This document shows, in pieces, positions 7,579 to 50,615 of a stretch of 64,000 nucleotides of DNA (positions are counted from its first letter, which is position 1; the number at the start of each line of letters is the position of its first letter). A program made the translations under genes and the position numbers. The DNA is taken from NCBI GenBank assembly GCA_048539495.1, contig JBLYPS010000008.1:837-64836 (forward strand). Direction: 5' to 3'. The notes under the pieces were generated by a model, which saw only the letters and a program-made list of their open reading frames with translations, was not told the DNA's origin and searched no databases. This DNA comes from Dehalococcoidia bacterium (GTDB taxonomy: Bacteria; Chloroflexota; Dehalococcoidia; SZUA-161; SpSt-899).

Positions 7579-8128
7579 GTTGCCTCCTCCAGGTCGTCAC
7601 CAGGAGCAGCAGGCCAACAGCGACGAGGAAGAGTGGCCACAGTCTGTCCCAGCGGAACCACCAGAAAAAGTTAAAATTAGCTGCCAAGAAAAAGAGACCC
7701 ACCACGACGAGGATAATGGCAATGAAGTTGCGACGCCGCCGATGAATCCTGTCCCGCTCTTCAGCCTCCGCTTCCTCCTCGCTAAATGTGGAACGTATCT
7801 CCTCTCCGACTTCGGCAGCGGTCTTCCTCATCTCCTCCACCTCCTCCCCAAATGCGTCACGTATCTTCTTTCCAAGTTCGGCAGCGGTCTTCCTTATCTC
7901 CTCCACATTCTCCCGCACCGTCTCCTTGGGCTGCGCCGTCTTTGAACCCTCCAGCGGAACGACGATAGCCATGATGATGTAGGCCAGGATGCCTATCCCG
8001 TTGGCAAAAACCAGCAGAACCATTACCAGGCGGATCACTGTCGGATCCACACCCAGGTATCTGGCCAGCCCCCCGCACACCCCCCAGATCACCCGGTCGC
8101 TCCGACTGCGATAAAGCCTCCTCTCCAT
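7571..8128 (-). CDS. PspC domain-containing protein
   Basis: The N-terminal LYRSRSDRVIWGVCGGLARYLGVDPTVIRLVMVLL is the PspC domain. There is an internal duplicated acidic segment (EEIRKTAAELGKKIR / EEMRKTAAEVGEEIR) and a C-terminal TM helix. Confidence 0.8.
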   Translation of the reverse strand: MERRLYRSRSDRVIWGVCGGLARYLGVDPTVIRLVMVLLVFANGIGILAYIIMAIVVPLEGSKTAQPKETVRENVEEIRKTAAELGKKIRDAFGEEVEEMRKTAAEVGEEIRSTFSEEEAEAEERDRIHRRRRNFIAIILVVVGLFFLAANFNFFWWFRWDRLWPLFLVAVGLLLLVTTWRRQHG

Positions 8129-14463: not shown

Positions 14464-16149
14464 TTGAAAGTGTCTTCGAAGATCGCCCAGCAGTTGCCCC
14501 GCCGGGTAGAGCGCTTTATCGCGGAGCATGGCCTCTTAGAACGAGTCGAGAGTCGAGAATCAAGAGTCAAGAGTCAAGAGGGAGGGGAGGGGGACTCCAG
14601 ACTCCAGACTCCAGACTCTAGACTGCTAGTGGTGGGGGTCTCGGGTGGGACTGATTCCATCTGTCTGCTCCACGTTTTACTCCAGCTAAGGGATAAACTC
14701 GGCATTGATTTGCATGTGGCCCATCTGAATCACCAGTTGCGAGGTGCGGAGGCGGATGCCGATGCGGAGCACGTATCGAATCTGGCGCGGCAGCTCGGCA
14801 TCGCCGCTACCATTCAGAAACGCGACGTAACCGAGTCGAGAGTCAAGAGTCAAGAGTCCAGAGTCCGGGGCGGCAGGGATGGGGACTCTCGACTCTCGAC
14901 TCTCGACTCCAGACTCTTGTTCGACTCTCGTTCCTCGATTGAGGAGGCGGCCCGGGAGGTACGCTATGCCTTCTTCGCTGAGGTAGCTCGGGCTACGGGC
15001 GCCGGCGCGGTAGCGGTGGGGCATACCGCCGACGATCAGGCCGAGACCCTCCTGATGCACCTGATTCGGGGGACGGGGCTTCTGGGGCTCCGAGGCATGC
15101 AGCCGCGCTCACGGTGGCGCTTGCTCGATGGGGCTCAACTGACGGTGATCAGACCGCTTCTGGCGGTCAGCCGGGAGGAGACCGAAGCCTACTGTGCTGC
15201 CTGCGATCTTTCCACACGGCTGGACTCCTCGAATATCTCTTCCAAATACCTGCGCAACCGCATCCGCGCCGAGCTTATGCCAGTGCTCATGGAATATAAT
15301 CCCCGCATCCGCGAGAGCCTGTCTCGTGCTGCCTGCACGATTGCTGCCGATATTGCTCATCTCGATGAGGAGGTGGCACGGCTCTGGGATTCTGTGGCAG
15401 TGGAACGACACTTCGACTCGGCTCAGGACAGGCACGACGCCGTAGCGCTGGACAACAGAGCGTTTTCCGCCCTTTCCCCGGCGCTCCGGCGGCATCTGTT
15501 GCGCTCCATCCTGGGACGATTGCTGGGGGACCTGCGAGATATTGAGTTAGTTCACATTGAGGGCCTGCTCAATGTCCTGGTAAGGCCGGCGGGTAAGAGG
15601 CTCTCCCTGCCCGGCGATCTTGTATTCCATGGCAGCTACACTGAAAGCCTCATCACCAGGTCCAAGGATGCTCCCTGTCCCTTGCCGCCGCTTACAGGGG
15701 AACACCACTTGGCTATCCCCGGCGAAACCATGCTGCCAGGCTGGCGGGTCAGAGCAAGGGTTATCGAAAGCAAGCCCTGTCCCGTCGATGATGCCGGCTA
15801 TAATCACGCCCCCAGAACCGAAGACTTTTGGGGGGGGCCTGTAATTGGGGGCAAAGATTCTTGTCGGACATCATACAAAGCTTGCCTCGATTTCGATCTT
15901 ACCGGCACACAGCTCGTTGTCAGAAGCCGCCGTGATGGCGATAGGTTCCAGCCACTGGGGATGGGTGAGTCAAAGAAGCTGCAGGACTTCATGATGGATG
16001 CCAGGATCCCCCGTGCCTGGCGGGACCGCGTGCCATTGGTCTGTGCCGGAGAACAGATCGTCTGGGTGGTGGGCTGGCGCATCAACCACCGCGTGAGGGT
16101 GACCGACTCCACCAGGCGAGTTCTCCGACTCGAGTTTGAGAGGATTTAG
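14464..16149 (+). CDS. tilS: tRNA(Ile)-lysidine synthetase
   Basis: PP-loop SGGTDS (LLVVGVSGGTDSICLL) and a C-terminal TilS domain. The 561-aa length is inflated by two in-frame palindromic insertions (14543-14625, 14832-14940). It uses a TTG start. Confidence 0.85.
   Translation: MKVSSKIAQQLPRRVERFIAEHGLLERVESRESRVKSQEGGEGDSRLQTPDSRLLVVGVSGGTDSICLLHVLLQLRDKLGIDLHVAHLNHQLRGAEADADAEHVSNLARQLGIAATIQKRDVTESRVKSQESRVRGGRDGDSRLSTLDSRLLFDSRSSIEEAAREVRYAFFAEVARATGAGAVAVGHTADDQAETLLMHLIRGTGLLGLRGMQPRSRWRLLDGAQLTVIRPLLAVSREETEAYCAACDLSTRLDSSNISSKYLRNRIRAELMPVLMEYNPRIRESLSRAACTIAADIAHLDEEVARLWDSVAVERHFDSAQDRHDAVALDNRAFSALSPALRRHLLRSILGRLLGDLRDIELVHIEGLLNVLVRPAGKRLSLPGDLVFHGSYTESLITRSKDAPCPLPPLTGEHHLAIPGETMLPGWRVRARVIESKPCPVDDAGYNHAPRTEDFWGGPVIGGKDSCRTSYKACLDFDLTGTQLVVRSRRDGDRFQPLGMGESKKLQDFMMDARIPRAWRDRVPLVCAGEQIVWVVGWRINHRVRVTDSTRRVLRLEFERI
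14543..14625. repeat. heptanucleotide palindromic element, family A (gagtcga/gagtcaa units, GGGAGGGG core, gactcca units), in frame in tilS
   Basis: gagtcgagagtcgagaatcaagagtcaagagtcaagagggaggggagggggactccagactccagactccagactctagact. It translates as ...ERVESRESRVKSQEGGEGDSRLQTPDSRL.... Confidence 0.85.
14832..14940. repeat. family A palindromic element (second copy in tilS, in frame)
   Basis: cgagtcgagagtcaagagtcaagagtccagagtccgggg...ggggactctcgactctcgactctcgactccagactc. Confidence 0.85.
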
Positions 16150-19475: not shown

Positions 19476-21123
19476 GTTGTGTCATCACGAGTTTACTCAA
19501 TGCTTCAAAGGAGTACGGGTTTCCCCGGATTGTCTCTGTCCATTCCTTCTTGCCATCCCGCCAGAGCTCGGTCCTCATCCTCACCCTGCCGCAAGAAGGC
19601 AGGAAGATATCCGCCACCACCTCGCCGGAGGATAACTCTAACTTTCCCAGATCGATGCAGTTGTAGATCAGGGCGTCCCTGGTATGCGCATGGGAAAGGG
19701 AGCTAGACACTATGACGCTCCCCGAGATGTCCAGGTAATCAGCGCTCACCCCCAGGAGAATACTGTCCTTCACCCTGCCTTTCGCCTGAGTATCAAGCAA
19801 TATGGAGTTTTCCACGGTCAGCCCACCCGAATAGGAGCTTTCTATCCAGTACCTATCCAGGTCGTAAAACTGCCTCAAGCATTCCCCTTCGAGAGATCTC
19901 TCCAGCAGCCGGAGAAAGTTTTGGTGATAAAGCCGTAGCTGGCCGTAGTCCCACCAGAGGGTCTGGCACCCCAGGTCTTTATCCCCGAATAGCTCAAGCC
20001 CCTCTTGGGCAAGAAACCGCCCTTTGAATCGGTTCACCCTTTCCCAGAGAGCTTCGTCGCCTCCGCCCGACACGAACTCCTCCCGGGTGGAGGTCAGGGG
20101 CATCCAGAGGTGAGGGTCGGTATCCATCCTTGCCCGCTTCTCGGCAAGCTCCGCGGCGAATTCCTCACGCAAAGCTTCCAGCAAGGCGTAAGAGAGCGAA
20201 AAACACCCCAGGCTCTTCCCCATGATTATCCTGCCCGATTCATCCGGTTGGGCCATTCCCCGGTCTATCAGCTTCTTCAGTTCGCTCCAACCTCGTTTTT
20301 CCCTCTGCAGAGCCCCGCTGCCGGCGGCGGGAATACAGTTATCAGAAGTCAGTTGGTAGGGATCAGCCCCCACCCCCCGATCCCTGACCCCTGTAGACTG
20401 TAAACTGATTATGAGTCCGTAGCTCTGCCAGTCCCTCTTCCAGGTCTCTTCATCGGACGGTATTTCGGCTCTGATGCTCAGTATCTCGCCTTGATACTTC
20501 CCCTCAAAACCCACCGACCTTGAGGGGATGAATATCTGATCGCCCCAGAAAACGCAGAGCCTTCCCCCACGGGAGGAAGCAAATGGGCCGGTCTGAAAGA
20601 TCACCCCTTCCAGGACGGTCATGGCGTGCCTCTTGCCATTTGTCTCGATCAGCCGGGGCAGTTTGATGGCCGACTTGTTATTGGCCTCGGCGGCGGGGAG
20701 TGGAGCCATTCTCATGCCCTTGCCGGCGGTATGATACATCGCCACCGAACCTCCGCTCAAGAGTCTGGAGTCTGGAGTCTGGAGTCTGGAGTCCCCCACC
20801 ACCCCCGACTCTCGACTCTCGACTCTCGACTCGTAACGAGGGCTGGCCTGGGCCTTCTCCCAGGCATAGAGTGTGCCCAACAACTGACCGGCCCCGCCCG
20901 GCCAGTCCTCCTCCACCGATATGATCTGTGTCTTTCGGCCGATGACCGAGCCGCGGCCGGCTTCCAGCCGCTCCTGCCAGAAATCCGCCTGATCCCTGTC
21001 CGAGGAAACGACGATGATGACATCGAAGCCGCGGTTGGTCTCCACCGCGGTGTGCATATCTTGAATGTTGGCACGATGCATGATCTCAACCCCTTCCTTA
21101 TCATAGCGCAGAGAGGCCAGCAA
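19462..21123 (-). CDS. putative sugar-1-phosphate nucleotidyltransferase of the fucokinase/GDP-fucose pyrophosphorylase-domain family
   Basis: An N-terminal region (VIIVVSSDRDQADFWQERL...WPGGAGQLLGTLYAW) resembles the fucose pyrophosphorylase domain. It is adjacent to the phosphohexomutase. Two in-frame repeat insertions (20340-20410, 20757-20832). Confidence 0.4.
   Translation of the reverse strand: MLASLRYDKEGVEIMHRANIQDMHTAVETNRGFDVIIVVSSDRDQADFWQERLEAGRGSVIGRKTQIISVEEDWPGGAGQLLGTLYAWEKAQASPRYESRVESRESGVVGDSRLQTPDSRLLSGGSVAMYHTAGKGMRMAPLPAAEANNKSAIKLPRLIETNGKRHAMTVLEGVIFQTGPFASSRGGRLCVFWGDQIFIPSRSVGFEGKYQGEILSIRAEIPSDEETWKRDWQSYGLIISLQSTGVRDRGVGADPYQLTSDNCIPAAGSGALQREKRGWSELKKLIDRGMAQPDESGRIIMGKSLGCFSLSYALLEALREEFAAELAEKRARMDTDPHLWMPLTSTREEFVSGGGDEALWERVNRFKGRFLAQEGLELFGDKDLGCQTLWWDYGQLRLYHQNFLRLLERSLEGECLRQFYDLDRYWIESSYSGGLTVENSILLDTQAKGRVKDSILLGVSADYLDISGSVIVSSSLSHAHTRDALIYNCIDLGKLELSSGEVVADIFLPSCGRVRMRTELWRDGKKEWTETIRGNPYSFEALSKLVMTQPISV
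20340..20410. repeat. composite heptamer element (C family), in frame in a CDS
   Basis: cagttggtagggatcagcccccaccccccgatccctgacccctgtagactgtaaactg. Confidence 0.7.
20757..20832. repeat. family A palindromic element, in frame in a CDS
   Basis: gagtctggagtctggagtctggagtctggagtcccccaccacccccgactctcgactctcgactctcgactcg. Confidence 0.85.
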
Positions 21124-23793: not shown

Positions 23794-23887
23794 CGGAATT
23801 AACCCTTCAGGGTTTCATGCTGCGTGATGAAAGGCTAACCGGAATTAACCCTTCAGGGTTTCATGCTGCGTGATTACAGGCTAAAGC
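23794..23887. repeat. tandem direct duplication (2 x ~47 bp) in the nadK upstream region
   Basis: cggaattaacccttcagggtttcatgctgcgtgatgaaaggctaac / cggaattaacccttcagggtttcatgctgcgtgattacaggctaaag. Confidence 0.85.
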
Positions 23888-27811: not shown

Positions 27812-28396
27812 ATCTGGACATTCATTGTGGCCGGCACCGGGATCCGTTGCCATGGAAATAGAGAATGGAAGTGGTGGTCGAGGGGGGAGTAATCCAGCTT
27901 TGAGCCAGCTTTGTTTGAGCGGATGTTCCAGCACGTATCTGTGAAAATCATCGAACCAGATACGAAATTGCCCTTTCAATCCTTACGAAATCCATCATGT
28001 AGTCATGTATTCCCGAATCTGGCGAGCCCCTCGAAATGGAACATCCGTTGTAGATGCATCCGCAGCGAGGCTCGACACCAGGCCTGAGTGATCGGCGTGG
28101 ATATGAGTAACAAAAAAATCTGCCTTTTTTGGATTCACATCGATTTCCTTCAGTCCAGAGGAGATTGCCCTCATACATTCGGGGCGATTCATTCCGGTAT
28201 CAATGATCAGCGCTTGCCCCCCAGCCTTTACTACGTAGGAATTGATAGCTTTCAGGGGACTATCGGGCAGAGGAACCTCGATCCGGTATAGGTTTGGCAA
28301 AATTTCGTCTACCATAGAACCCTCCTCGTCTATCGGCCAAGCCATGCCTTCACGGCATTGGGCAGATCTCGTGATAGTCCCCTCTCCAATCGACAC
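27737..28396 (-). pseudogene. MBL-fold metallo-hydrolase, apparently frameshifted
   Basis: The first ORF (28396-27995) carries the HIHADHSG motif but stops after 133 aa. Two overlapping downstream ORFs in other frames may continue the fold. It overlaps the 3' ends of both neighbouring genes. Confidence 0.45.
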
Positions 28397-31300
28397 GGTG
28401 GCAATGAATTCACGAACATCGGGCCATAGCTCCTCGTATTCAGCCGGCTATCGAGGACCACCATCACTCCCCGGTCGGTCTTCGACCGGATAAGCCGACC
28501 AAACCCTTGCTTGAATCTAAGGGCAGTCTGCGGCAGGGCGTATTCATTGAAGGGATCAGCAAAGGTCTCCGAGCGAGCGGCGAAGATGGGGTCGGTAGGA
28601 ACATTGAAGGGCAAGCGAACTATGACCAGGACGCTGAGTGCCTCCCCCACCACATCAACCCCCTCCCAGAAACTCGCCGCGCCCAGAAGCACCGTCCGGG
28701 GATTGCTCCTGAAAGTAGAAAGGAGCTGCCGCGGCGAGCCATTCACCCCCTGGCCCAAAACAAGGATGTCTTCCTCCTCCAGCGGAGCCTGGATGACGGT
28801 CTGGGTCGCCCGCAACGCCGCATGAGAGGTAAAAAGAACCAGACAGCGTCCTCCAGTAGCCCGACAGAGTGATACCAGTGCCCTTCCCAGGGCTGCTTGA
28901 TAGCCCGCCCTCCCCGGCTCGGGGATATCCGTGACCAGATAGATCAGCGCCGCGCTGCTATAATCGAAAGGCGATCCCAACAGAAGCTCCCGTAGGACGG
29001 GCATCTTGCCCGTCGCCTCTAAGCTAAGTCGTTCCTTGAGAAATTTGAAGTTGCCTTCCGTGCTCAAGGTAGCGCCGGTGAGGATGAGAGAATCCTTTTG
29101 GGAATAGAGGGAGTTTTGTAAGAGCGATCCCACGTGCAAAGGGGCGGAGCGTAAACATATCGTATTGGTCTTTCTGCCCAGAGTGAGCCAGTGGATAGTG
29201 TTCTCCCTGGGATGGAAAACCAACGAGCTTATCTGGTGCCGCAACTCCTCGTTCGTATTTAGCAGCGAGAGCACCTCAAGCTCCCAATAGTCGAGAGTCG
29301 AGAGTCGAGAGTCGAGAGTCGAGAGTCCCCCTCCCTGCCCCGGACTGCTGACTGCTGACTGCTGACTTATTACATGATGTATCTTCTCCAGTATCCGGGC
29401 AATATCCTCCAGTGACAGAAGCAGATTCTCACAGTTGATCTCGATGTCCGACCATGCTGGCTGAGCGCGAATCGCCATGGTGAGACGCAGGTGGAGATCG
29501 TATTCGCTCTGGGTTTCCGTATAGCCCTGAACAAGATCACGAAGATTATTGAAAAACTCCGAGACCCTACGGCGAACCCTGGATACTCCCAGGATCAGCG
29601 AATGGTTCAGTCGTTCGATATCCTCCTTTATTGATGGAGCCAGATCGCCGATGCGGACGAGGTTTTCCAATTGAGGAAGAAAACCAGATCGATTGCCATG
29701 CGTCTCGTAGATTATCTGATCAAGATGATCGAGAAAGTCCTGCTCCCGAAGCTCAGTGCCGAGTTGATCAGTAGCCACGCCCTCGAGGTGATGGGCCTCA
29801 TCAATGACCAGATGGTGATATTCGGGGAGTATCTCCGCACCAGTAGCCATCTCCGATAAGAGGAGGGCATGGTTAGTGACGATGAGATGCGCCCCTGCCG
29901 CTGCCTTACGGGCGCTGTGAAGGAAGCAGATTCCCCACTGTTCTCGGTTGTCAGTTGTCGGTTGACAGTTGACAGCCCCCCGACCCCCGACCCCTGATCC
30001 CTGATCTCTGATCCCTGAATAGGGACATCGCCGCCCGAGGCAATCGTATCCTTGAGCGCAGACCCGCGGCCAGAACGCAAGCTCCCTGCCATCAAGGTTG
30101 AGCTCGGAGCGATCGCCTGTCTGGGTCGTTGGAAGCCAGACCTGAATCCGAGCCAGAAGCTGGATCACCTCAAATGGCAGGCCGTCGGACTTGCGCAAAC
30201 TGTCCCAGCGCCGCAAGCAGAGATAGTTCGTTCGACCCTTCACCTGAGCCACCTTAAGTTTTGAGTATTGAGTATCGAGTTTAGAGGAGGGAGGGTGGCC
30301 TCCAAACTCAGAATTCAGAACTCTAAACTCCAACGCTGACCCGATCGCTTGAACCAGAGCAGGGATATCCTTGTGCACCAGTTGCTCTTGAAGATTGATA
30401 GTATTGGTGGAAATGACCACCGGCACATTGTTGCGGTAGGCGAAAAACGCCGCTGGCAAGAGATAAGCCATCGATTTGCCCGTGCCCGTGCCTGCTTCCA
30501 CAATCAAGTGCTGGCTACCGTTAAGCGCCTCAGCGGCTGCTCTCATCATCTTGACCTGTTCCGGGCGCTGCTCGTACTGGGGGAATGTCCGGGCCAGAGG
30601 CCCATCGCGCTCAAAGAAACCGGTAAGTTCCTCAATATCCAACAGGACCCTTTCTGCGCTCGGAGTCAACGGTTCATTTAGAGCACGATATCCAACTAGT
30701 TTTGAGTATTGAGTATCGAGTTTAGAGGAGGGGAGGTGGCCTCCAAACTCAGAACTCAGAACTCTAAACTCGAACCCTCTTTCCTCCCACACCTTTCGAA
30801 GTAAGCCGCTGAGCCACCAATCGGTATTAGCGCCTTCGGTGCTAACCTTGACCGCTCCGCGGTCAAGGTTTGTGGTCAGACGTACCAGCTCACCCAGGAC
30901 ACTGGCATCAAGTTCGTATAACCGGTTCAGCAGTACTAAGAAGGTCTCCTTGACCACCAGCGCATCGTTCAGTGCACGGTGAGTGGAGGGGTGAGGAATC
31001 CCGAGGTGCGAGGCCACCGCAGTTAGATTGAGCTGCGGGAGGTGCGGGAGCAGAAGCTTGGCCAGAGCGTAGGTATCGTAGGCGGAATTAGCAAAGTGTC
31101 GTAGCCTGATGCCCTTCTTCTCCAGAAAGCTCAGGTCGAAGGATATATTGTGTCCCACCACCGGGCATCCTTCCAAGAAGGCAATCAATCCCTCCGCTAA
31201 CGCTGAAAATGGTGGCGCGGCATCAACCTCCTCTTGCGAAATGGCGCAGAGCGATCTAATGAAGTATGGTATGGGCCGGTGGGGATTGACCAGGGACTGA

Positions 31301-31419
31301 AATACCTCTATCTCGTGGCCATCCCGAAACTTGACCGCGCCGATTTCAATAATCTCGTCGCTCTCCGGTCGGAGGCCAGTGGTCTCCAGGTCCAGGGCAA
31401 CGTAAATCTGATCCTTCAT
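28330..31419 (-). CDS. dinG: DinG-family ATP-dependent helicase with a fused N-terminal DnaQ-like 3'-5' exonuclease
   Basis: The N-terminal VALDLETTGLRPESDEIIEIGAV is Exo motif I. Walker A VEAGTGTGKS, a DEAH box (VIDEAHHL) and the helicase C-terminal domain follow. Carries at least four in-frame repeat insertions (29281-29352, 29950-30025, 30262-30345, 30700-30772). Confidence 0.85.
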   Translation of the reverse strand: MKDQIYVALDLETTGLRPESDEIIEIGAVKFRDGHEIEVFQSLVNPHRPIPYFIRSLCAISQEEVDAAPPFSALAEGLIAFLEGCPVVGHNISFDLSFLEKKGIRLRHFANSAYDTYALAKLLLPHLPQLNLTAVASHLGIPHPSTHRALNDALVVKETFLVLLNRLYELDASVLGELVRLTTNLDRGAVKVSTEGANTDWWLSGLLRKVWEERGFEFRVLSSEFGGHLPSSKLDTQYSKLVGYRALNEPLTPSAERVLLDIEELTGFFERDGPLARTFPQYEQRPEQVKMMRAAAEALNGSQHLIVEAGTGTGKSMAYLLPAAFFAYRNNVPVVISTNTINLQEQLVHKDIPALVQAIGSALEFRVLNSEFGGHPPSSKLDTQYSKLKVAQVKGRTNYLCLRRWDSLRKSDGLPFEVIQLLARIQVWLPTTQTGDRSELNLDGRELAFWPRVCAQGYDCLGRRCPYSGIRDQGSGVGGRGAVNCQPTTDNREQWGICFLHSARKAAAGAHLIVTNHALLLSEMATGAEILPEYHHLVIDEAHHLEGVATDQLGTELREQDFLDHLDQIIYETHGNRSGFLPQLENLVRIGDLAPSIKEDIERLNHSLILGVSRVRRRVSEFFNNLRDLVQGYTETQSEYDLHLRLTMAIRAQPAWSDIEINCENLLLSLEDIARILEKIHHVISQQSAVSSPGQGGGLSTLDSRLSTLDYWELEVLSLLNTNEELRHQISSLVFHPRENTIHWLTLGRKTNTICLRSAPLHVGSLLQNSLYSQKDSLILTGATLSTEGNFKFLKERLSLEATGKMPVLRELLLGSPFDYSSAALIYLVTDIPEPGRAGYQAALGRALVSLCRATGGRCLVLFTSHAALRATQTVIQAPLEEEDILVLGQGVNGSPRQLLSTFRSNPRTVLLGAASFWEGVDVVGEALSVLVIVRLPFNVPTDPIFAARSETFADPFNEYALPQTALRFKQGFGRLIRSKTDRGVMVVLDSRLNTRSYGPMFVNSLPPCRLERGLSRDLPNAVKAWLGR
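29281..29352. repeat. family A-type element with a variant right arm (gactgct units), in frame in dinG
   Basis: gtcgagagtcgagagtcgagagtcgagagtcgagagtccccctccctgccccggactgctgactgctgactgctgac. Confidence 0.8.
29950..30025. repeat. C-family composite heptamer element (cagttga units, C-rich core, tgatccc units), in frame in dinG
   Basis: ggttgtcagttgtcggttgacagttgacagccccccgacccccgacccctgatccctgatctctgatccctga. Confidence 0.8.
30262..30345. repeat. family B palindromic element (gagtat(t/c) units, GGAGGG core, aactcag units), copy 1 of a direct pair in dinG
   Basis: gttttgagtattgagtatcgagtttagaggagggagggtggcctccaaactcagaattcagaactctaaactcc. Confidence 0.85.
30700..30772. repeat. family B palindromic element, copy 2 (same orientation, about 440 bp downstream, in frame in dinG)
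   Basis: gttttgagtattgagtatcgagtttagaggaggggaggtggcctccaaactcagaactcagaactctaaactcg. Confidence 0.85.
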
Positions 31420-31598
31420 TTAACCCAGATAATGCATGATGTATCTAAATGACTGCAAAAAATGACACGAAAACGAAGCTACGTGCATAATTTGGGATTA
31501 AATCTCCTATCTTGTCAGCATCAGAGGATGCCTGCTCCTCTCTCCCTTGAAAACAGCAATTTCATGCGACATGGTACACCGCGACGCATGGGCAATTC

Positions 31599-32168
31599 CT
31601 AACATACCACCGGAGCAAGTTCAAATAGACCCCAACCTAAGTAGATCAGAAGCATGGTTCTCACCAGCCGCCCCGGCCAGCTGAAAAGGAGGAATTTCCA
31701 CAACGGGAATCTCAGCGCTCCGCAGACGATTCCCACCAGATCGAAGGGAAAGGGCATCATAGCAATGACAAATATGGCCACACTGCCGTAGCGTCTCATC
31801 CAGAGCTCTATTTTCCCGTAGTCTCTCCGATGTTTCTCGGTGATCACTGCCCTTCCCCAGTACCCTGCGAGGTATCCGGTGGTCTCACCCAGCGTCGCTC
31901 CGGTGGTTGCCACCATCCCCAGCCAGAATAAACCCCATCCCGAAAGTCCCATAATACCCGGCGCTGCGACCAGGATCGCCCAGCCGGGAAGGGGAACAAG
32001 GATGGTCATGCTGCTGACGAGCATCAAGATGAAGATGCCCAGGAAACCGTAGGCACGGACTAGCCCCTCCCAGTCGATATCGAGCTGGTAAACGATAAAC
32101 CCCAGGGCAAGAATACAGAGTATGCCCAGCACCAGCAGAAGTTTTTTGTTCCACGATTCACGATTCAT
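31599..32168 (-). CDS. VTT-domain (TVP38/TMEM64 / DedA-like) membrane protein
   Basis: 189 aa, multi-TM, with the characteristic ...RYGSVAIFVIAMMPFPFDLVGIVCGALRFPLWKFL... segment. Confidence 0.65.
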   Translation of the reverse strand: MNRESWNKKLLLVLGILCILALGFIVYQLDIDWEGLVRAYGFLGIFILMLVSSMTILVPLPGWAILVAAPGIMGLSGWGLFWLGMVATTGATLGETTGYLAGYWGRAVITEKHRRDYGKIELWMRRYGSVAIFVIAMMPFPFDLVGIVCGALRFPLWKFLLFSWPGRLVRTMLLIYLGWGLFELAPVVC

Positions 32169-32199
32169 GATTCCTGAATTCCTGAGGGTAGGGGCGAAT

Positions 32200-33225
32200 T
32201 TATTCGCCCTGTCGGGAGGCTGAAGCCTCCCCTACCAGTATGCCAGCAGTTGTACGCACCAGAAGAGCCTCCATACCCTCCCCATTTAATCGCCTCGCCA
32301 GTGCCTCTCCCTCTACTTCATCGGGCACCAGCGTGAAGAGCATTGGCCCCGCTCCGACGAGGTGAACGCTGCTAGCCCCGGCGGCGAGAAATCTCCTGCG
32401 ATACTCATCGATCTGGGGGAAGAAATCAAAGGCCACACCTTCAAAGGTATTACATAGCAGAGAGGATTGCAAGGGGCGACCACGGCGCAACTCGCTCACC
32501 AGCTTCCGTGTAGCAGCACCGGTTGTGAAATGTGACGAGTCCAACAGGGAATACATTACAGCAGTCTTGGAGGGAACGGGGTCGATCGCTGGCTTCAGCA
32601 GCACCAGCCAGGTTGCAGGCAGCGTGGGAAGAATGGTGATTTTCTCCCCGCGCCCTTCCGCCAGGGCTGTGCCGCCGTAAATGAAAAACGGGGCATCCGA
32701 ACCTATTCTCGCTGCCAGTTGGCTCAGATTCTCGCGAGATAGCTCAAGAGACCAGAGTTGATTTAGCCCCCTCAGTACCGCAGCCGGAATACTGGCACTT
32801 GAGCCGAGGCCGATCCCGCCGGGGATAGCCACGCTTTCCGCTCGAATCACCGCCCCCTTACGAGTCGAGAGTCGAGAGTCGAGAGTCGGGGAGGGGCGGG
32901 GGACTCCAGACTCCAGACTCCAGACTCCAGACTCCAGACTCAGCAGCCTCGCCGCCTTTAATACCATCTTTTCAAACGACGCCATTAGCGAGTGATTGGT
33001 GAATGGTGAACGGTGATTAGTCCCCATCCCCCAAGGCGAGTGATTGGTTTGACCGGTGCCAGGGTCGAGGCACTCAAATTTGATCTCCGTTGCCGGTTCG
33101 AAAGAGAGTACGTCCACGAGATTGATGGTCTGGAGAACGCTCGAGATCTCGTGATAGCCATCATCTCGTCTCCCCAGTACCTCAAGGGTCAAGTTCACCT
33201 TGGCATGGGCCGAAAGGGTTAACAT
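32200..33225 (-). CDS. ispE: 4-(cytidine 5'-diphospho)-2-C-methyl-D-erythritol kinase
   Basis: AHAKVNLTLEVLGRRDDGYHEI N-terminus and the GHMP kinase motif (IPGGIGLGSSAS). The annotated ORF's first 25 codons are encoded by repeat 33232-33310, so the Met at 33225 is the likelier start. An in-frame family A insertion at 32858-32945 gives ...LESGVWSLESGVPRPSPTLDSRL.... Confidence 0.85.
   Translation of the reverse strand: MLTLSAHAKVNLTLEVLGRRDDGYHEISSVLQTINLVDVLSFEPATEIKFECLDPGTGQTNHSPWGMGTNHRSPFTNHSLMASFEKMVLKAARLLSLESGVWSLESGVPRPSPTLDSRLSTRKGAVIRAESVAIPGGIGLGSSASIPAAVLRGLNQLWSLELSRENLSQLAARIGSDAPFFIYGGTALAEGRGEKITILPTLPATWLVLLKPAIDPVPSKTAVMYSLLDSSHFTTGAATRKLVSELRRGRPLQSSLLCNTFEGVAFDFFPQIDEYRRRFLAAGASSVHLVGAGPMLFTLVPDEVEGEALARRLNGEGMEALLVRTTAGILVGEASASRQGE
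32858..32945. repeat. family A palindromic element, in frame in ispE
   Basis: gagtcgagagtcgagagtcgagagtcggggaggggcgggggactccagactccagactccagactccagactccagactcagc. Confidence 0.85.
32988..33060. repeat. gtgattg-family element inside the ispE 5' region
   Basis: gagtgattggtgaatggtgaacggtgattagtccccatcccccaaggcgagtgattggtttgacc. Confidence 0.65.
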
Positions 33226-33231
33226 ACGTGA

Positions 33232-33310
33232 AAAGTTAGAGTTCTGAGTTTTGAGTTTAGAATCCATTCCCCTCCTCCCTCCTCGAAGCTCTATACTCAA
33301 AACTCAATAC
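33232..33310. repeat. family B palindromic element (reverse orientation) at the ispE / rsmA junction
   Basis: agttagagttctgagttttgagtttagaatccattcccctcctccctcctcgaagctctatactcaaaactcaatactg. Confidence 0.8.
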
Positions 33311-34189
33311 TGCCCATTCCTCCAGGCTAATCGTCTCGGCTCGTCTCTGGGGGGATATCCCTGATCTATTCAAAAGTGCCGCGGCGGCGGCGGGCGAAAT
33401 GGAAAAGCCGTGAGCCAGAGCATTGCGCAGTTGCTTCCGGGGGGCACTGAATCCAGCCCGCACCACTTGAAAGAATCCCTCGACCTCCGCCACCGGGCGA
33501 CAATAGACATCGATGCGCACGATCGCCGAGTCTACCTTGGGGACGGGATAAAAACTCTGCGCCGGAACGTAGTCCACTATCTCTGGCTTCCCGTAAATCT
33601 GCACCCCGATGCTCAGGATGCTCATCCTGCCCGGACTAGCCACGATGCTTTCGGCGACTTCCTTCTGCACCATCACCACCAGGCGGCGAGGCTTGAACGT
33701 TGTTTCCAGGAAATGACGGATGGTGGGGGAGGCAATATAGTACGGCAAATTGGCCACGAATTTGTAGTTGAAATCAGGGGACTGGACCGCAAAAAACTCG
33801 CCCGGCACGAATTGAAGAATATCGTTATTGAGAATGATGATGTTCGTCAGGTAGGAGAATCTCTCGGTCAGGATCGAGGCTATTCGGGGGTCGATCTCGA
33901 TTGCAACTACTCTCCTCGCTTTCCCGACCATCTCCTCAGTGAGCACACCCAGTCCCGGCCCCGCCTCCACCACCGTATCATCCGAAGTTAGCTCTGCAGC
34001 CTCGATTATCGTCCGCAGCGCTCCCTGATCGACAAGAAAATGCTGCCCCAGTCCCTTCCTGGCGTGAAGGCCAAAGCGTCTGAGCAGCTTTTTGGTCTGG
34101 AGGAGCAATGCATCAGGAGGAGATCCCCTTGAACCCCCCCTTTTGAAGGGATTTGATTCTTCGCGCAAGATAGTCGCTACCTCAGCCAT
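33257..34189 (-). CDS. rsmA: 16S rRNA (adenine1518-N6/adenine1519-N6)-dimethyltransferase
   Basis: [19 protein letters not shown]...[12 protein letters not shown] is the KsgA/RsmA AdoMet motif. The N-terminal tail overlaps repeat element 33232-33310. Confidence 0.85.
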
Positions 34190-37654: not shown

Positions 37655-37717
37655 GGCTCTTCTCCCTCTCCTAGATAGACCATACCATAGCTACCGTATC
37701 GGTGTCAACCAGAACGA

Positions 37718-37800
37718 GTTTTGAGTATTGAGTATCGAGTTTACAGGACGGGGTGGCCTCAAAACTCAGAACTCTAAACTCTTGACTCTTGACTCTTGAC
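37718..37800. repeat. family B palindromic element plus 4 tandem 'cttgact' heptamers (intergenic)
   Basis: gagttttgagtattgagtatcgagtttacaggacggggtggcctcaaaactcagaactctaaactcttgactcttgactcttgactcttgac. Confidence 0.85.
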
Positions 37801-41566: not shown

Positions 41567-41869
41567 ATGACAGGTTGCACTTCATGTGTGATCAAGACAT
41601 TCGCAGACAGGCACACGCAGGAACTGTACGCGACTGGTAGGTCGAAACGGTTCCCGCCGGACATCGCGCGACGGGCGAGGCGGAAGCTTGAGTACATCGA
41701 CTTGGCAACGCGCCTAGATGAACTTAAGGTTCCTCCCGGCAATCGACTCCACCAGCTTGGGCAGCACCGGGAGGGGCAGCACGCCATCTCTATCAACGAC
41801 CAATGGCGCATCTGCTTCCGGTTCGTCGATGGTGATGCCTACGAGGTCGAGGTCACAGACTATCACTGA
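41567..41869 (+). CDS. higB: type II toxin, HigB family (plasmid-maintenance killer protein)
   Basis: VIKTFADRHTQELYATG...FPPDIARRARRKLEYI...RLHQL...WRICFRF is the HigB-like toxin pattern. It sits upstream of an XRE-HTH antitoxin. Confidence 0.75.
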   Translation: MTGCTSCVIKTFADRHTQELYATGRSKRFPPDIARRARRKLEYIDLATRLDELKVPPGNRLHQLGQHREGQHAISINDQWRICFRFVDGDAYEVEVTDYH

Positions 41870-41882
41870 GACGAGGTGTGAC

Positions 41883-42197
41883 ATGAGCATTCCAAACACG
41901 GGGAACAGGGAGGTCCGGCCCGCCCATCCCGGCGAGATGCTTCGGGAGGATTTCCTGCCCGACTACGGGCTCACGGTCTCCGGTCTTGCTGAGGCGTTGG
42001 GCGTCTCGCGTCAGACGGTCAACGAGCTGCTCCGCGAGCGTCGGGCGGTGAGTCCGGAAATGGCGCTCCGGCTCTCGCGGCTGTTCAGAAACTCTCCCGA
42101 GTTCTGGCTCAACGCGCAACGCGCGGTGGACCTATGGGACGCAGCCCAGACCGTCGGGACCGACGTCGAGCGCATCAAGCCCTTGATCGTCGCATAA
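41883..42197 (+). CDS. higA: HigA-family antitoxin (XRE-type HTH)
   Basis: HPGEMLREDFLPDYGLTVSGLAEALGVSRQTVNELL is the HigA HTH signature. It starts 14 nt after the higB stop. Confidence 0.8.
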   Translation: MSIPNTGNREVRPAHPGEMLREDFLPDYGLTVSGLAEALGVSRQTVNELLRERRAVSPEMALRLSRLFRNSPEFWLNAQRAVDLWDAAQTVGTDVERIKPLIVA

Positions 42198-43153: not shown

Positions 43154-43954
43154 ATGCAAGTTGAAAGTTTCCAATACCGGGACCCGACGGTCCGATCCGT
43201 TCGAATGAGCCGACGGGCTCTTCTTCAGAGGCTCTGCAACCCGCCTCAAGAGGGCAGATGGTTGCTTGCAATTGATCCCGATACATTGGTTGCAAGCATC
43301 GTCGTTCAGAGACCCGATGGGTTCGTCCCAGACGTGCAGGGACACGAAGATCTTTTCCCACTCCTGATGGCAATCGAGCGGCAGGATGGTTTCATTCAGG
43401 GCGGAGACTGGCTCGTAGCGAGCACACCGGCCAAGCGTGAAAGCGACGGCATTTATCGGAGCTATCGGGTTGAATGGGATGATCCGAACCCGGTCATCAT
43501 GGACCCAGGAATCCCGGTCCCTCACACTGGAGCGCTACGGGTCTTCTTGTGCCACGCATCGCAAGATAAGCCTCGAGTACGCGAGCTTTACGAACAAATT
43601 CTGCGATGGGGATACCGTCCCTGGCTCGATGAAGAGAAAATACTTCCAGGTCAGGACTGGAAGGCGGAAATCCGAAAAGCGATTACGGGCACATATGTGG
43701 TGGTCGTTTGCCTCTCACGCAAGGCCACAACGAAAGCAGGTTTCGTTCAAGCGGAGATCGCGCATGCTCTGGATGTCGCAGATGAGCAGTCTGACGGGAC
43801 TATCTTCATCGTACCCCTTCGGCTTGAGGATTGCCGAGTCCCCGATCGGCTTCAGAGATGGCAGTGGGTGGACTTTTTTGGAGAGAAGGGACCAGACCTG
43901 TTTCAGTATGCTCTCAGGACGCGCGCAGCGACCCTTGATTTCGACAATGACTGA
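43154..43954 (+). CDS. TIR-domain protein with an unknown N-terminal domain
   Basis: The C-terminal ~140 aa read RVFLCHASQDKPRVRELYEQILRWGYRPWLDEEKILPGQDWKAEIRKAI...YVVVVCLSRKATTKAGFVQAEIAHALD...IVPLRLEDC. This is the bacterial TIR layout (FxSY/HxxxD, WxDxxxxxPGxxW, SxxxxxSxWxxxEl). The N-terminal ~130 aa match nothing I recognise. Confidence 0.75.
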   Translation: MQVESFQYRDPTVRSVRMSRRALLQRLCNPPQEGRWLLAIDPDTLVASIVVQRPDGFVPDVQGHEDLFPLLMAIERQDGFIQGGDWLVASTPAKRESDGIYRSYRVEWDDPNPVIMDPGIPVPHTGALRVFLCHASQDKPRVRELYEQILRWGYRPWLDEEKILPGQDWKAEIRKAITGTYVVVVCLSRKATTKAGFVQAEIAHALDVADEQSDGTIFIVPLRLEDCRVPDRLQRWQWVDFFGEKGPDLFQYALRTRAATLDFDND

Positions 43955-44689: not shown

Positions 44690-44784
44690 GCGTCAAATCC
44701 AGGCACGCGGTCCAACACGGCATGCGGCCGACCGCTTCGCGCTGCGCCCTCGCCGCGGCTGATGCCCACGTTAGGCGACGCGGT

Positions 44785-46230
44785 ATGAACCCTTTCTTGC
44801 CAAGCCCTATGATGGAATCGATCTCCGACTATACTCTTGAAAGATTCTCGCGAGCGGTCACGCTCACAGTTCTCGAACTGGACGTAGACCGCCATGCACT
44901 CGTTCCCGCCTACCTCATAGCCAACCTCATGTCGCCAGCTTTGTGGAGATGGCGGGAAGAGCGCAGAGCCTGCGCTCGGAATGGGCAGCTCTTGGGCGCG
45001 AACCGCCGTCTCAAGGAGCTCGAAAGACACTTCCACCGATACACATTCACGCACTTCGCAGACCAGCCAGGCGGCGATCCGTGGGGCTTACTCAGCTTCT
45101 CAGACGAAGAACAGCGTCTCGGGAGCGAGTACGTTCGACATGCGCGGCAGGAGTACGACGAGACGCTTAAGGGCCTGCTGAGGCAGAACCCTGATAGCCA
45201 GTTCGGGCAGATCGTCAAGCAGGATTACTATGAGCGTGGATACTTCCCACGGCTGAGGAATGAGACCCTCGAGGTAATGGACGCGTATTCCACCATTTCG
45301 GACGACGGCAGAGGCTCGGGCAAGTGTGCCGCACTCGCAATGCTTTGGGCAGCCGCGCTTATGGTTTGGGGCCGCTTCCCTCCTGAGAGAATCGCACTGA
45401 TAGGGAACCGTGCCCACGTATTCGTGTTCCTCGATGAGGATAATGGTCACCTCTTCAACAACACAAAGTGGTTCAGTCGGACAAGAATCCACAACGCGTC
45501 GGAGCTCTCCGAGTTCGTGAAGATGGTTACGACCGGCACGAGCACAACGTTCTTCTACTGCCCATCCCTCGGAATGTGCCAGTGTTCAGAGAGGAAATCG
45601 ACGATCCCGTGCGATCACTTAGTGGAGTTGTACCGCCATGTTCGAGACTTCCTCTCGGTTCCCCTGAGGCACCCGGACCCGGCGAACATCTGCTTCGAGG
45701 GAGTATCTGATCCCATTCCGCTCCCATCCGCGTACACCTCAGCCCAGGACTATCGTGATGCCGTCTGGGCCTTGGCGGATCGTCGCCCGGAGTCGGTCTA
45801 CGACTTGGCTCGGTATGCATACCGGTCGCTGGATGTGCCTGCGCCCGCGGTATACGCTCGGGCCGCTCTTCGTGACTATCATGCCCAGGACGCAGCGCGG
45901 CGCATCGGAGATCTCGAAGGGGCCATAGAGTTCGTAAGGAGGATACCCGGACGCCGTTCCGTATTCGACAGCAGAGAACGTATCCAGCTGCCTGACGAGA
46001 CGTTGGCCTTCCGAACAGGCGATGACAGCGACAGGGCACTGCTTCTGTTCACCTTACTTTCGCACTCCTGTGGGCAGTCATCTCGGGTCGGGGTCGCCTT
46101 GACCGATGATGCCAGCTATGTGCGTTTCGAGGGGCTCTGGGTAAATGCTGGTACGCTGTCGGTCGAGTCCCGGACGCCTGAAGGAGTGACCTCTGTGTTC
46201 AACGAGATGGGGAGTTCAGTCGTTTCGTGA
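44785..46230 (+). CDS. large hypothetical protein with a possible transglutaminase-like/papain-like Cys-His-Asp core
   Basis: A GSGKCAALAMLWAAALMVWG segment is followed about 30 aa later by HVFVFLDEDNGHLFNNTKW. That spacing suggests a transglutaminase-like cysteine protease core, but this is uncertain. 482 aa from the Met at 44785; the ORF track starts at 44722. Confidence 0.4.
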   Translation: MNPFLPSPMMESISDYTLERFSRAVTLTVLELDVDRHALVPAYLIANLMSPALWRWREERRACARNGQLLGANRRLKELERHFHRYTFTHFADQPGGDPWGLLSFSDEEQRLGSEYVRHARQEYDETLKGLLRQNPDSQFGQIVKQDYYERGYFPRLRNETLEVMDAYSTISDDGRGSGKCAALAMLWAAALMVWGRFPPERIALIGNRAHVFVFLDEDNGHLFNNTKWFSRTRIHNASELSEFVKMVTTGTSTTFFYCPSLGMCQCSERKSTIPCDHLVELYRHVRDFLSVPLRHPDPANICFEGVSDPIPLPSAYTSAQDYRDAVWALADRRPESVYDLARYAYRSLDVPAPAVYARAALRDYHAQDAARRIGDLEGAIEFVRRIPGRRSVFDSRERIQLPDETLAFRTGDDSDRALLLFTLLSHSCGQSSRVGVALTDDASYVRFEGLWVNAGTLSVESRTPEGVTSVFNEMGSSVVS

Positions 46231-46554: not shown

Positions 46555-46983
46555 TTGATTAATTTATGGGTCAGACAAGATTTCGGAATTAGAAAGAGGA
46601 GAAAGAAGTTGAAACAAAAGTGTTCCAATCCAAAAATGTCAGAGATTTTGTTAGAGTATGCCTCTGATTATATCGGCATGGGAGTAACTTTAGAGGAAAA
46701 AGGGCACTACCTGAATTCAGCTATTATGGCATGGAATCTTTCCCTGTTCCCAGAAGGCGAAAGAGAAAAACAAAAGCAGGCAACTCTAAAAAGGCTCGAA
46801 GAATTGACTCCTGGTTCCAAGAATCTGGAGATTCTAAAACACAATTTGGCTATCTTGATCAAGAAAAAACTAACGCAATTCCCTGAGATTAAGGAGCTAA
46901 TCCTCAACGCAGAAATCAGCATTGTTGACGGCAAAGAGTGTCTATATGTTGCTTCTACTGATTTGCAGGAAACCAATGATTAG
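46555..46983 (+). CDS. hypothetical protein in a very AT-rich patch
   Basis: Lys-rich with low-GC codon usage, unlike its neighbours. The start may be the Met at 46636. Confidence 0.35.
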   Translation: MINLWVRQDFGIRKRRKKLKQKCSNPKMSEILLEYASDYIGMGVTLEEKGHYLNSAIMAWNLSLFPEGEREKQKQATLKRLEELTPGSKNLEILKHNLAILIKKKLTQFPEIKELILNAEISIVDGKECLYVASTDLQETND

Positions 46984-47245
46984 CACAGGGCCAATGGTGA
47001 CATCATCCTGATTTTGGAGAGTCTTATCAAGCGTAGTCCTCAGAGCGTGGGAAAGCCTACTACAAGGGGAAGGACTTGACGGGAGTACGTAGCTCGCAAA
47101 GAGCCTGCCCTGAGCGAAGCCGAAGGGAAACTTATGCCGGACATAGCAGGACCGGAGCAACATAAGCCAAACTCCCTGCGGGGAATAGCAAACAGGTCGG
47201 GAGCCGGCAACGGTTACGACCTGCGCGGAACCGAGTACAACCGAG

Positions 47246-47279
47246 GAACCGGATGCGGGAAAATCGCACGTCCGGGTCT
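47246..47279 (+). ncRNA. group II intron domain V-like motif (probable degenerate intron 3' remnant)
   Basis: GAACCGGATGCGGGAAAATCGCACGTCCGGGTCT resembles the domain V consensus GAGCCGTATGCGATGAAAGTCGCACGTACGGTTCT. It has the same 2-nt AC bulge and helix register, and a hairpin follows. No intron-encoded reverse transcriptase is present. Confidence 0.4.
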
Positions 47280-47365
47280 GTGCGGGGGGCGACGGGTAAC
47301 CGGCGTTCCTACCGCGGCGGCTTGGAGTGAGTGATGAAACAGAGGGTATCATATAGAAGGTTAAC

Positions 47366-50501: not shown

Positions 50502-50615
50502 TGTCGGAGCGTGATGCCAGACTTTAGCTTCGCCAAAGCGACTCTCAGGGGCGCGCTACGAAAATCCAGGTTGGAGGAGGTGCTATGTATAAATAACCGA
50601 AGTTGAAACCAGGGT

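Follow-up and report, generated by a model that had tools for sequence, protein, structure and literature searches.

The dinG gene in the 64-kb stretch of Dehalococcoidia DNA analyzed here (64,000 nucleotides, hereafter the window) contains two near-identical repeats, B1 and B2, which are probably mobile-like hairpin repeats that are tolerated by their host gene and filtered by purifying selection. They look like tolerated selfish DNA, as it was first seen in Rickettsia, and not like a recombination switch.

Pfam detects RNase_T, DEAD and Helicase_C_2 domains in the dinG product, and with its N-terminal DEDDh exonuclease, its XPD/DinG-type SF2 helicase and its intact motifs, the protein belongs to the DnaQ-DinG group. 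All invariant motif residues are kept in an alignment with homologues, which usually have a length of about 925–960 amino acids vs. 1029 in the window. An AF2 model of the protein (pLDDT 80, pTM 0.80) matched the S. aureus and E. coli DinG structures (8zef_A, TM 0.75; 6fwr_A, TM 0.71). Five long segments of this model have pLDDT values below 50, and they coincide with the five lineage-specific insertions: a palindrome (aa 188–199), B2 (aa 218–246), B1 (aa 367–383), and the elements C (aa 466–496) and A (aa 692–706). As judged from the model, these insertions would be located in loops and at the surface, away from the conserved core, and an alignment of 121 DinG sequences places them at length-variable positions (Table 1).

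Table 1. Positions of dinG, of the elements inserted into it, and of further B and B-like elements in the window.
Feature	Position	Strand	Description and basis
dinG host gene	28330..31419	-	DnaQ-type 3'-5' exonuclease + DinG/XPD-type helicase fusion; 1029 aa, intact ORF
18-nt insertion relative to L001	29017..29034	-	makes hairpin GACGGGCA-AGA-TGCCCGTC; pairwise and codon alignment
A element	29283..29372	-	sense strand (AGTCAGC)n, core CGGGGCAGGGAGGGG, (GACTCTC)n; in frame
C element	29941..30018	-	heptamer arrays TCAGGGA/TCGGGGG ... CTGTCAA/CTGACAA; in frame
B1 repeat copy	30257..30337 (element proper 30258-30334)	-	encodes about aa 362-388
B2 repeat copy	30698-30778 (replaced segment 30696-30774)	-	encodes about aa 215-241
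27-nt perfect palindrome	30844..30870	-	12-bp stem + 3-nt loop; repeat search, alignments
B-like element	33236..33305	+	rsmA/ispE junction; arm matches, sequence inspection
B3, third full B copy	37716..37790	-	intergenic; one heptamer fewer, core variant

A repeat search grouped B1 and B2 into one family with two direct copies of 81 nt that are 94% identical (76/81), share perfect identity blocks of 35, 20, and 16 nt, and have a start-to-start spacing of 441 nt (147 codons). This bears out a sequence-only reading of the window, which had noticed near-identical direct elements in dinG. The 20-nt arm GAGTATTGAGTATCGAGTTT has six matches in the window at no more than three mismatches and none in 100 shuffles. 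In the dinG frame, B2 reads GFEFRVLSSEFGGHLPSSKLDTQYSK and B1 reads ALEFRVLNSEFGGHPPSSKLDTQYSK; the sequence-only reading had given the encoded peptides correctly, apart from the S and N of LSSEF/LNSEF, which it had swapped between the copies. B1 is positioned in the loop past helicase motif Ia and ahead of the first Fe-S cysteine, a region where the alignment to 8zef runs from query residue 360 to 387 while the chain advances only from 327 to 329. B2 occupies the linker that joins the exonuclease domain to the helicase domain.

Only one of the six reading frames of B is free of stop codons, and certain purely intergenic members of the family are closed in all six. Hence, any copy surviving in coding sequence must share this orientation and frame, and the common orientation and frame of B1 and B2, correctly recognized in the sequence-only reading, do not call for a special explanation. 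The sense strands of B1 and B2 fold with −25 and −31 kcal/mol (z −3.3 and −4.1 against shuffles). Since the antisense strand folds as well as the sense strand and a strand asymmetry at the RNA level was not seen, a palindrome at the DNA level is indicated rather than a selected RNA. The sense folds are stabler than those of the shuffles, and a function of the hairpin or of the peptide is conceivable.

The additional elements in dinG and the further B and B-like elements are listed in Table 1. Element C adds a net 25 amino acids to the putative Fe-S domain, between its conserved residues Cys465 and Cys498; it is found only in the window and in the MAG contig L001, its 78 nt stand for 3 nt of the relative L002, and its site is a four-residue loop in 107 of the 121 aligned sequences. 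Element A follows motif II and precedes the C-terminal helicase domain, and the window copy is longer by 21 nt (three heptamers) than those of both L001 and L002. The 27-nt palindrome lies within a lineage-specific insertion of 14 aa where the exonuclease domain ends, and the orientation of its loop is flipped relative to L002. Collectively, dinG carries the in-frame A and C insertions that the sequence-only reading had listed next to B1 and B2, and in addition the palindrome and the 18-nt hairpin insertion. Outside dinG, B3 is 92% identical to B2 over 60 nt (blastn-short), and the B-like element provides the stop codon of rsmA as well as the GGAGG and ATG preceding ispE.

B1 and B2 are present at the same spacing in four independent assemblies, namely the window, L001, and the metagenome contigs L126 and L127 (99.77% identical, gap-free); this concordance rules out an assembly artefact as their source. 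Both copies are missing from L002–L006 and from all other DinG homologues in the 121-sequence alignment, and no homologue at ≤89% identity contains the B peptide. L002 is devoid of B1 and B2, yet its sequences flanking the two sites are 90–98% identical. By the measure of these alignments, B1 and B2 are recent copies. The comparison of DinG with its orthologues, which the sequence-only reading had proposed, defined the insertion points: at the nucleotide junctions, 77 nt of B1 are found in place of 38 nt of L002, and 79 nt of B2 in place of 37 nt. The word insertion, as used in that reading, is too simple, since each B copy, compared with the nearest relative that has an empty site, displaces 37–38 nt of the native loop. 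No target-site duplication is present at the filled-versus-empty junctions of B1, B2, and C, and a search of the elements for a conserved flanking target motif and for junction microhomology found neither.

Among the aligned homologues, long loops at the B1 and B2 sites are restricted to the clade formed by the window and P0001–P0005. Other heptamer elements fill the same DinG loops in P0003, P0004, and P0005, and one adjoins the B2 site in P0002. Over 13 kb, the window and L001 differ by 70 mismatches and by just three indels: 7 additional nt in an intergenic array and 21 additional nt in the coding A element, both of which are slippage-type changes in unit number, and the new 18-nt hairpin.

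B is a member of a superfamily with the plan (GAGTYNN)n, G/C-rich core, (NNRACTC)n, in which five of the seven arm positions are complementary. This array-core-array pattern has 21 matches in the window (0 expected). TRF and a period-7 scan detected tandem 7-nt units with at least three copies. The window has 28 heptamer runs vs. 0.4 in shuffles, and nearby arrays occur in inverted orientation. Eighteen of the 28 arrays are positioned within CDS; at 64% vs. a coding fraction of 85%, the arrays are depleted in CDS, yet mostly genic. In-frame copies that orthologues lack are found in tilS, pgm, ispE, and ilvB, and ispE shares a second element family with an unrelated ORF, the copies being 94% identical. 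The analysis upholds the sequence-only assignment of B1 and B2 to a dispersed repeat family whose copies entered dinG in frame and duplicate a peptide there. Per 10 kb, the window, L001, and L002 have 4.4–9.0 heptamer runs, and three of four relatives at 72% identity have 0.7–1.3 (4.2 in the fourth, L004, a short contig); the elements have undergone a lineage-specific burst. The array-core-array architecture itself is present in many phyla, largely outside genes, and at most 12 of 110 elements in a cross-phylum sample are spanned by long ORFs.

The B family is low-copy in the data at hand: of its three full copies, dinG holds two. The concatenated B peptides were compared with 5.8 billion proteins; this search, whose sensitivity is uncertain for so short and low-complexity a query, gave one word-sharing candidate, no scored match, and no second gene with B in frame; a metagenome scan for the B core yielded two contigs only, both with the same dinG. 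The low copy number and the unshared peptide words raise the possibility that a local event, rather than two independent hits, links B1 and B2. Rfam at gathering thresholds recognized no family in any of the elements, Pfam gave no match to a transposase, a RAYT or a reverse transcriptase in the approximately 30 ORFs scanned in the 64 kb, and literature searches with the accessions and the literal heptamer sequences returned nothing relevant.

We propose that B1 and B2 represent a non-autonomous repeat element of 73–81 nt from a lineage-specific superfamily, whose opposed heptamer arrays would form an imperfect hairpin around the G/C-rich core. After the split from the closest sampled relative, B copies would have overwritten 37–38 nt in two DinG loops that are poorly conserved and, as predicted, surface-exposed. 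The segments are in frame and are most likely translated, as the conservation of the frame suggests, into disordered peptides of about 26 amino acids that the enzyme tolerates and that may be nearly neutral. Purifying selection would act as a filter through which only permissive-loop sites and the single stop-free B frame pass, and such a filter would render B1 and B2 alike in orientation, frame, and peptide. Once inserted, the arms change by whole heptamers, up or down, through replication slippage, and within coding sequences they do so in multiples of three. The spread of the elements may have followed a copy-paste mode unlike classical transposition, in which native sequence is replaced and no target-site duplication is left.

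Could the elements instead have been co-opted, for instance as mRNA hairpins that tune translation or stability, or as peptides that serve as an interaction surface? The stability of the sense folds would fit such a role, as would the stop codon and the GGAGG-ATG start context that one element supplies at the rsmA/ispE junction and the identity of the B copies in the window, L001, L126, and L127. However, the assemblies sharing the elements are nearly identical overall, so that this conservation says little; the antisense strand folds equally well, dinG is intact without the elements in close relatives, and the same loops hold different, unrelated elements in sister lineages. We therefore consider co-option unlikely. 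Another improbable scenario dispenses with mobility altogether, and attributes the elements to heptamer slippage and hairpin or template-switch repair synthesis, with ectopic gene conversion homogenizing B1 and B2. Indels in unit number are indeed seen, as are a new 18-nt hairpin and a flipped-loop palindrome between close relatives, the replacement of native sequence without duplication, and the lack of a transposase in the ORFs scanned. Nevertheless, units of 65–73 nt that share their arms and whose cores are closely related reside at three unlinked sites, and the second family has its 94%-identical copies in ispE and an unrelated ORF; such related units at unlinked loci mean that sequence must be copied between loci. 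Local mutation hence concerns the mode of copying and is no real alternative to dispersal.

We regard it as very unlikely that B1 and B2 are a recombination substrate, at which in-frame loss of 441 nt creates heterogeneity or a switch. Deletion between direct repeats of such length is well established in bacteria, and here it could proceed by RecA-dependent exchange or replication slippage, the two direct copies being identical at 76 of 81 positions and sharing the 35-nt perfect block. With 441 nt corresponding to 147 codons, the product would stay in frame and would lose motifs Q, I (Walker A), and Ia (E283/R285/Q288, G310–K315, T338–L347), leaving a helicase-dead but exonuclease-proficient DinG. 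Excision between the repeats, as envisaged in the sequence-only reading, is possible in principle, but all four independent assemblies hold both copies with identical spacing and without gaps. Moreover, the constraint to one open frame fully accounts for the direct orientation, a loss would be irreversible and hence no switch, and single, unrelated elements occupy these loops in sister lineages. There is virtually no chance that the 26-aa peptide, despite its two occurrences in the protein, dates from an ancient internal duplication or serves this DinG subfamily as a functional motif: the orthologue alignments refute the duplication, whose presence in distant DinG proteins the sequence-only reading had named as fatal to its proposal, the peptide is missing from all homologues at ≤89% identity (L002 included), no Pfam domain covers it, the model is disordered there, and an intergenic spacer holds a third copy.

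The preferred interpretation, tolerated mobile-like repeats, can be set against known systems, and the elements join RPE-like in-frame insertion with STRR-like heptamer arrays. According to the account in PMC3184786, the Rickettsia palindromic elements (RPE; Ogata et al., 2000) are short palindromic repeats that lie dispersed and in frame within protein-coding genes. Like the RPE of that account, B is a dispersed, hairpin-capable repeat (three full copies and partial ones) that is found in frame within an ORF whose orthologues lack it; the product is intact, the fold is undisturbed, and several housekeeping genes are affected. Relative to the RPE portrayed there, the elements are shorter (73–90 nt vs. 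about 105–146 nt), are made of tandem heptamers in variable number, replace native loop sequence, and reach five or six per gene. Their host, a member of the Dehalococcoidia (Chloroflexota) and not Rickettsia, also sets them apart from the RPE families.

Heptameric repeats known as STRR were reportedly described in cyanobacteria by Mazel and colleagues in 1990. The GGGAATC repeats of Xanthomonas and the GGGGAYT repeats of Nostoc occur in convergent pairs (Rehm et al., 2015, PMC4692102). Tandem 7-nt units, closely spaced inverted array pairs with the potential for a stem-loop, a unit number that varies among close relatives (here by 7 and 21 nt against L001), and a mobilizing mechanism that is not known are common to those repeats and ours. 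Those repeats are described as under-represented in coding sequences and mostly intergenic; of our 28 arrays, likewise depleted in CDS, 18 are genic and in frame. The motif differs as well (GAGTY/RACTC with a G/C-rich core), and array-core-array units are copied as a whole from one locus to another. The elements resemble MITEs, such as Nezha and the ORF-fused ones of Anabaena (PMC3184786, PMC10969869), in being small, dispersed, and non-autonomous, with inverted ends, a hairpin fold, and occasional in-frame ORF fusion. They differ from MITEs in that target DNA is replaced, not interrupted, without target-site duplication. Their arms are mutually inverted tandem heptamers (5/7 complementary) and apparently not conventional terminal inverted repeats; an insertion sequence related to them did not come to light, and approximately 30 ORFs scanned in the 64-kb window gave no transposase match. 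REP/REPIN, which are extragenic and RAYT-dependent (PMC3116915), are likewise short, palindromic, dispersed repeats without target-site duplication. Unlike these, 18 of the 28 arrays fall within ORFs; a RAYT did not turn up among the ORFs scanned in the 64 kb. The elements can also be likened to the small dispersed repeats (SDR) of Nostoc as very small, possibly mobile units with a short core between tandem heptamers. Elhai and colleagues are said to have reported in 2008 that SDR have 21–27-nt cores with their own conserved fold, embedded in heptamer arrays; to our knowledge, SDR are confined to cyanobacteria and their enzyme is not known.

A bolder extension, for which we see a small but not negligible chance, is that heptamer-array hairpins constitute a distinct, transposase-independent class of copy-paste DNA that is present in many bacterial phyla and has burst into housekeeping genes in this lineage. 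Were this the case, the elements would spread by overwriting a few tens of bases, either through template switching during repair or by way of an RNA intermediate, identical permissive loops of proteins would have been struck repeatedly in these Dehalococcoidia, and B1 and B2 would also represent a latent in-frame deletion site able to disable the DinG helicase motor.

If B1 and B2 are tolerated mobile-like repeats, the RPE-style colonization of coding sequences extends beyond Rickettsia, and a single repair helicase tolerates five or six element-derived insertions, one of them inside a putative Fe-S domain, while many further housekeeping genes of this uncultured lineage bear elements as well. 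Repeated independent hits would mark permissive loops in proteins, and the filled and empty sites, unit changes, and junctions described here could yield the mechanism behind the abundance of heptamer repeats in bacteria. For annotation, inflated protein lengths and low-complexity peptides would in this lineage derive from repeats. The tryptic peptides expected from the element-bearing DinG are VLNSEFGGHPPSSK, VLSSEFGGHLPSSK, and LDTQYSK.

The DinG protein of the window matches the Pfam domains RNase_T, DEAD and Helicase_C_2, and its closest solved structures by sequence, the S. aureus exonuclease-DinG (8zef) and E. coli DinG (6fwr), are also fold matches of its AlphaFold model (TM 0.75 and 0.71, respectively). 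Thousands of DinG homologues are present in the database, all from Dehalococcoidia or Chloroflexi where named, and their usual length of 925-960 aa is exceeded by the window protein by about 80-100 aa. We located the excess residues through alignments with 14 and with 51 homologues and through a codon alignment with six orthologous loci, and all three assigned them to the same five blocks (Table). Three of these, the near-identical family B copies B1 and B2 and the element C, were found only in the window and the MAG contig L001, plus the metagenome contigs L126 and L127 over their 3-kb fragment. Among the window protein and its 120 best homologues, long loops at the insertion sites are confined to the clade comprising the window protein and the homologues P0001-P0005; at the C site, 107 of the 121 aligned sequences have a 4-residue loop, to which C adds 25 residues. 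This distribution rejects an ancient internal duplication, the outcome that the sequence-only reading had named as its refutation.

Table. Coordinates of dinG, its insertions and other features of the window.
Feature	Window (nt)	DinG (aa)	Remarks
dinG	28330..31419, minus strand	1029 in total	single uninterrupted ORF, contains B1 and B2
RNase_T		7-157	Pfam
Palindrome block	30844-30870 (palindrome)	about 183-197	14 aa, includes 27-nt palindrome
B2		about 215-241	exonuclease-helicase linker
B1		about 362-388	after motif Ia
C		468-493	between conserved Cys465 and Cys498, putative Fe-S domain
A	29283-29372	about 683-712	alignment block
B1/B2 pair	30257-30337, 30698-30778		direct 81-nt copies
Third full B copy	37716-37790		intergenic
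18-nt insertion	29017-29034		dinG, relative to L001
B-like element	33236-33305		rsmA/ispE junction
tilS elements	14543-14626, 14833-14917		two, in frame, GAGTC/GACTC type
(GAGTCGA)n-core-(GACTCCA)n	20761-20843, 32862-32941		opposite orientation, 94% identical
Longer tandem repeats	7774-7914, 23794-23884		66-nt unit x2.1, 46-nt unit x2.0; unrelated to heptamer elements
Synteny break	27995-28330		downstream of dinG
HTH protein	41718-42197
TIR-domain protein	43154-43954
ORFs without Pfam match	44722-46230, 46555-46983
Group II intron match	47244-47318		Rfam, 42.9 bits (gathering score 40)
Type I-C CRISPR-Cas	48162-58246		Cas3, Cas5d, Csd1/Cas8c, Cas7, Cas4, Cas1
CRISPR array	about 57027-58246		repeats GTCGCCCCCCACGCGGGGGCGTGGATTGAAAC

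In the AlphaFold model (mean pLDDT 80, pTM 0.80), the five insertions are the long segments predicted with pLDDT <50: 188-199, 218-246, 367-383, 466-496 (which a short dip at 461-464 precedes) and 692-706. The sole further dip comprises four residues (923-926). A phmmer alignment with 8zef skips from residue 360 to 387 of the query, over which the chain advances only from 327 to 329. The loop of the 27-nt palindrome reads GGA on the sense strand and is flipped to TCC in L002 (about 2690-2750), a close relative without B1, B2 and C, in which 39 extra nt (REEGLGEPPISPP) immediately follow the palindrome.

A repeat search recovered B1 and B2 at 94% identity and a spacing of 441 nt; they agree at 76 of 81 positions, with perfect blocks of 35, 20 and 16 nt, and the 20-nt B arm has six matches in the window at ≤3 mismatches (none in 100 shuffles). 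The same arrangement is present in L001 (99.2% identity to the window over 13 kb) and, gap-free, in L126 and L127 (99.77% over 3 kb). Since these contigs agree with the window, the pair is real and an assembly artefact is ruled out; the directly repeated near-identical elements noticed in the sequence-only reading are hence confirmed in four assemblies.

On the sense strand, B reads (GAGTTNN)x4 - GAGGCCACC(C/T)(T/C)CCCTCCTCT - (AWACTCR)x4, and many window elements share the plan (GAGTYNN)n, a G/C-rich homopurine or homopyrimidine core, and (NNRACTC)n, the arms being complementary at five of the seven positions of each heptamer. A pattern encoding this plan has 21 matches in the window (0 expected), and heptamer runs number 28 versus 0.4 in shuffles. 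Coding sequence makes up 85% of the window, and 18 of the 28 runs lie inside ORFs, so that the elements are under-represented in genes even though most of them reside there. Besides dinG, their hosts include tilS (two elements), ispE (three), rsmA, ilvB and the genes for a phosphoglucomutase and an aminotransferase; orthologues of ispE and ilvB are without the window's copies. Full B copies are known at three sites only (Table), the B peptide words are shared by no other protein in a database search, and Rfam yielded no match to the elements. In tilS, the Pfam PP-loop match is split into two stretches. The TAA within the B-like element ends the rsmA frame, and its core provides GGAGG followed by the annotated ispE ATG, adding 14 aa relative to orthologues. 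The (GAGTCGA)n-core-(GACTCCA)n family is stop-free in all six frames; one copy lies in ispE, the other in a 553-aa ORF without a Pfam match.

Six-frame translation showed B to be stop-free in a single frame. Some intergenic-only family members have stops in every frame, and GAGTC-type members whose variable positions are C or G have stops in none. DinG would be truncated by B inserted the other way round or in another frame, and purifying selection would leave the one open frame. The same orientation and in-frame placement singled out by the sequence-only reading are present in both copies, and each is expected from this single frame; as B is open in one frame only, the orientation, frame and peptide shared by B1 and B2 are as expected after such selection and need no special explanation. 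Excision between the copies, which had also been proposed, would remove 147 codons in frame, among them the residues that protein alignments show to be invariant in motifs Q, I and Ia, and leave an ATPase-dead DinG. Deletion between bacterial direct repeats is possible with homology such as their 35-nt perfect block, which would in principle suffice. However, the deletion was seen in none of the four assemblies, and the direct orientation has its simpler cause in the single open frame. Of the earlier interpretation, the in-frame repeat insertions therefore stand, and recombination is unsupported.

Relative to L002, the closest empty-site relative, B1 replaces 38 nt with 77 nt, B2 37 nt with 79 nt, and C 3 nt with 78 nt. 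Neither a target-site duplication nor a common flanking motif was found at the junctions, and the scanned window ORFs revealed neither a transposase nor a RAYT or reverse transcriptase. We tentatively propose that the elements spread by copy-paste in a manner different from classical transposition, perhaps through template switching associated with repair. Across window positions 28328-33558, identity to L002 is a mosaic, 98.4% from ispE to the dinG N-terminus and about 90-94% over the remaining dinG, which suggests homologous recombination between lineages inside dinG.

Over 13 kb, window and L001 are separated by 70 substitutions and no more than three indels: in the window, an intergenic element is longer by one heptamer (7 nt), the coding A element is longer by three (21 nt), and dinG carries an 18-nt insertion that makes a new 8-bp hairpin. 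With these whole-heptamer indels, unit-number change by slippage is directly seen, and its sole coding instance, in A, keeps the frame. The 18-nt insertion (GACGGGCA-AGA-TGCCCGTC) is accompanied by clustered substitutions and resembles an inverted copy of the neighbouring GATGCCC; it may represent a template-switch (quasi-palindrome) event. The window, L001 and L002 have heptamer runs at a density of 4.4-9.0 per 10 kb, as opposed to 0.7-1.3 in three of four relatives of 72% identity (4.2 in the fourth, the 4.7-kb contig L004); this higher density indicates a lineage-specific burst. Other heptamer elements occupy the same DinG loops in P0003 and P0005 (B1 loop) and P0004 (A site), and P0002 carries a different element immediately downstream of the B2 site, which fits a high insertion rate filtered to few permissive sites. 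The A element of the P0004 lineage (locus L005) has the left arm of its window counterpart and a similar core; in its right arm, the unit GACTATC takes the place of GACTCTC, which looks like concerted evolution of units within the array.

Scanning a genome collection with the architecture pattern yielded at least 119 loci. Among the matches listed are Cyanobacteria, Acidobacteriota, Planctomycetota, Nitrospirota, Gemmatimonadota, Bacteroidota, Chloroflexota and others, all with GAGTY/ACTC units and including Nostoc, Calothrix and Pyrinomonadaceae. Their cores are mostly A/T-rich, and most lie outside ORFs: long ORFs span no more than 12 of 110, as against 5 of 7 for the pattern matches of the window. 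Among the long simple-sequence repeats of bacteria, heptamers are the most over-represented, and no mechanism for this is generally accepted (literature); in-frame small repeat insertions are known from Rickettsia (RPE), Bordetella (BRE), pneumococci and Anabaena (MITEs) (PMC3184786). The window elements combine the in-frame insertion of Rickettsia RPE with the build of STRR-type heptamer pairs; they show no target-site duplication, which defines MITEs, and are not extragenic, as REPs are by definition. Of interest here are mainly the dense insertions into coding sequence, the repeated hits on the same loops, the junctions at which native sequence is replaced, and an architecture that recurs across phyla.

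At the synteny break, confirmed by L126 and L127, the window lacks the Memo gene located after dinG in L001 and L002, and the metallo-beta-lactamase gene is shortened to 133 aa. The group II intron match barely exceeds the gathering score, and no reverse transcriptase was recognised nearby, the two ORFs there being without a Pfam match. The TIR-domain protein, close to the HTH protein and an ORF without a Pfam match, may belong to a defence island upstream of the CRISPR locus.
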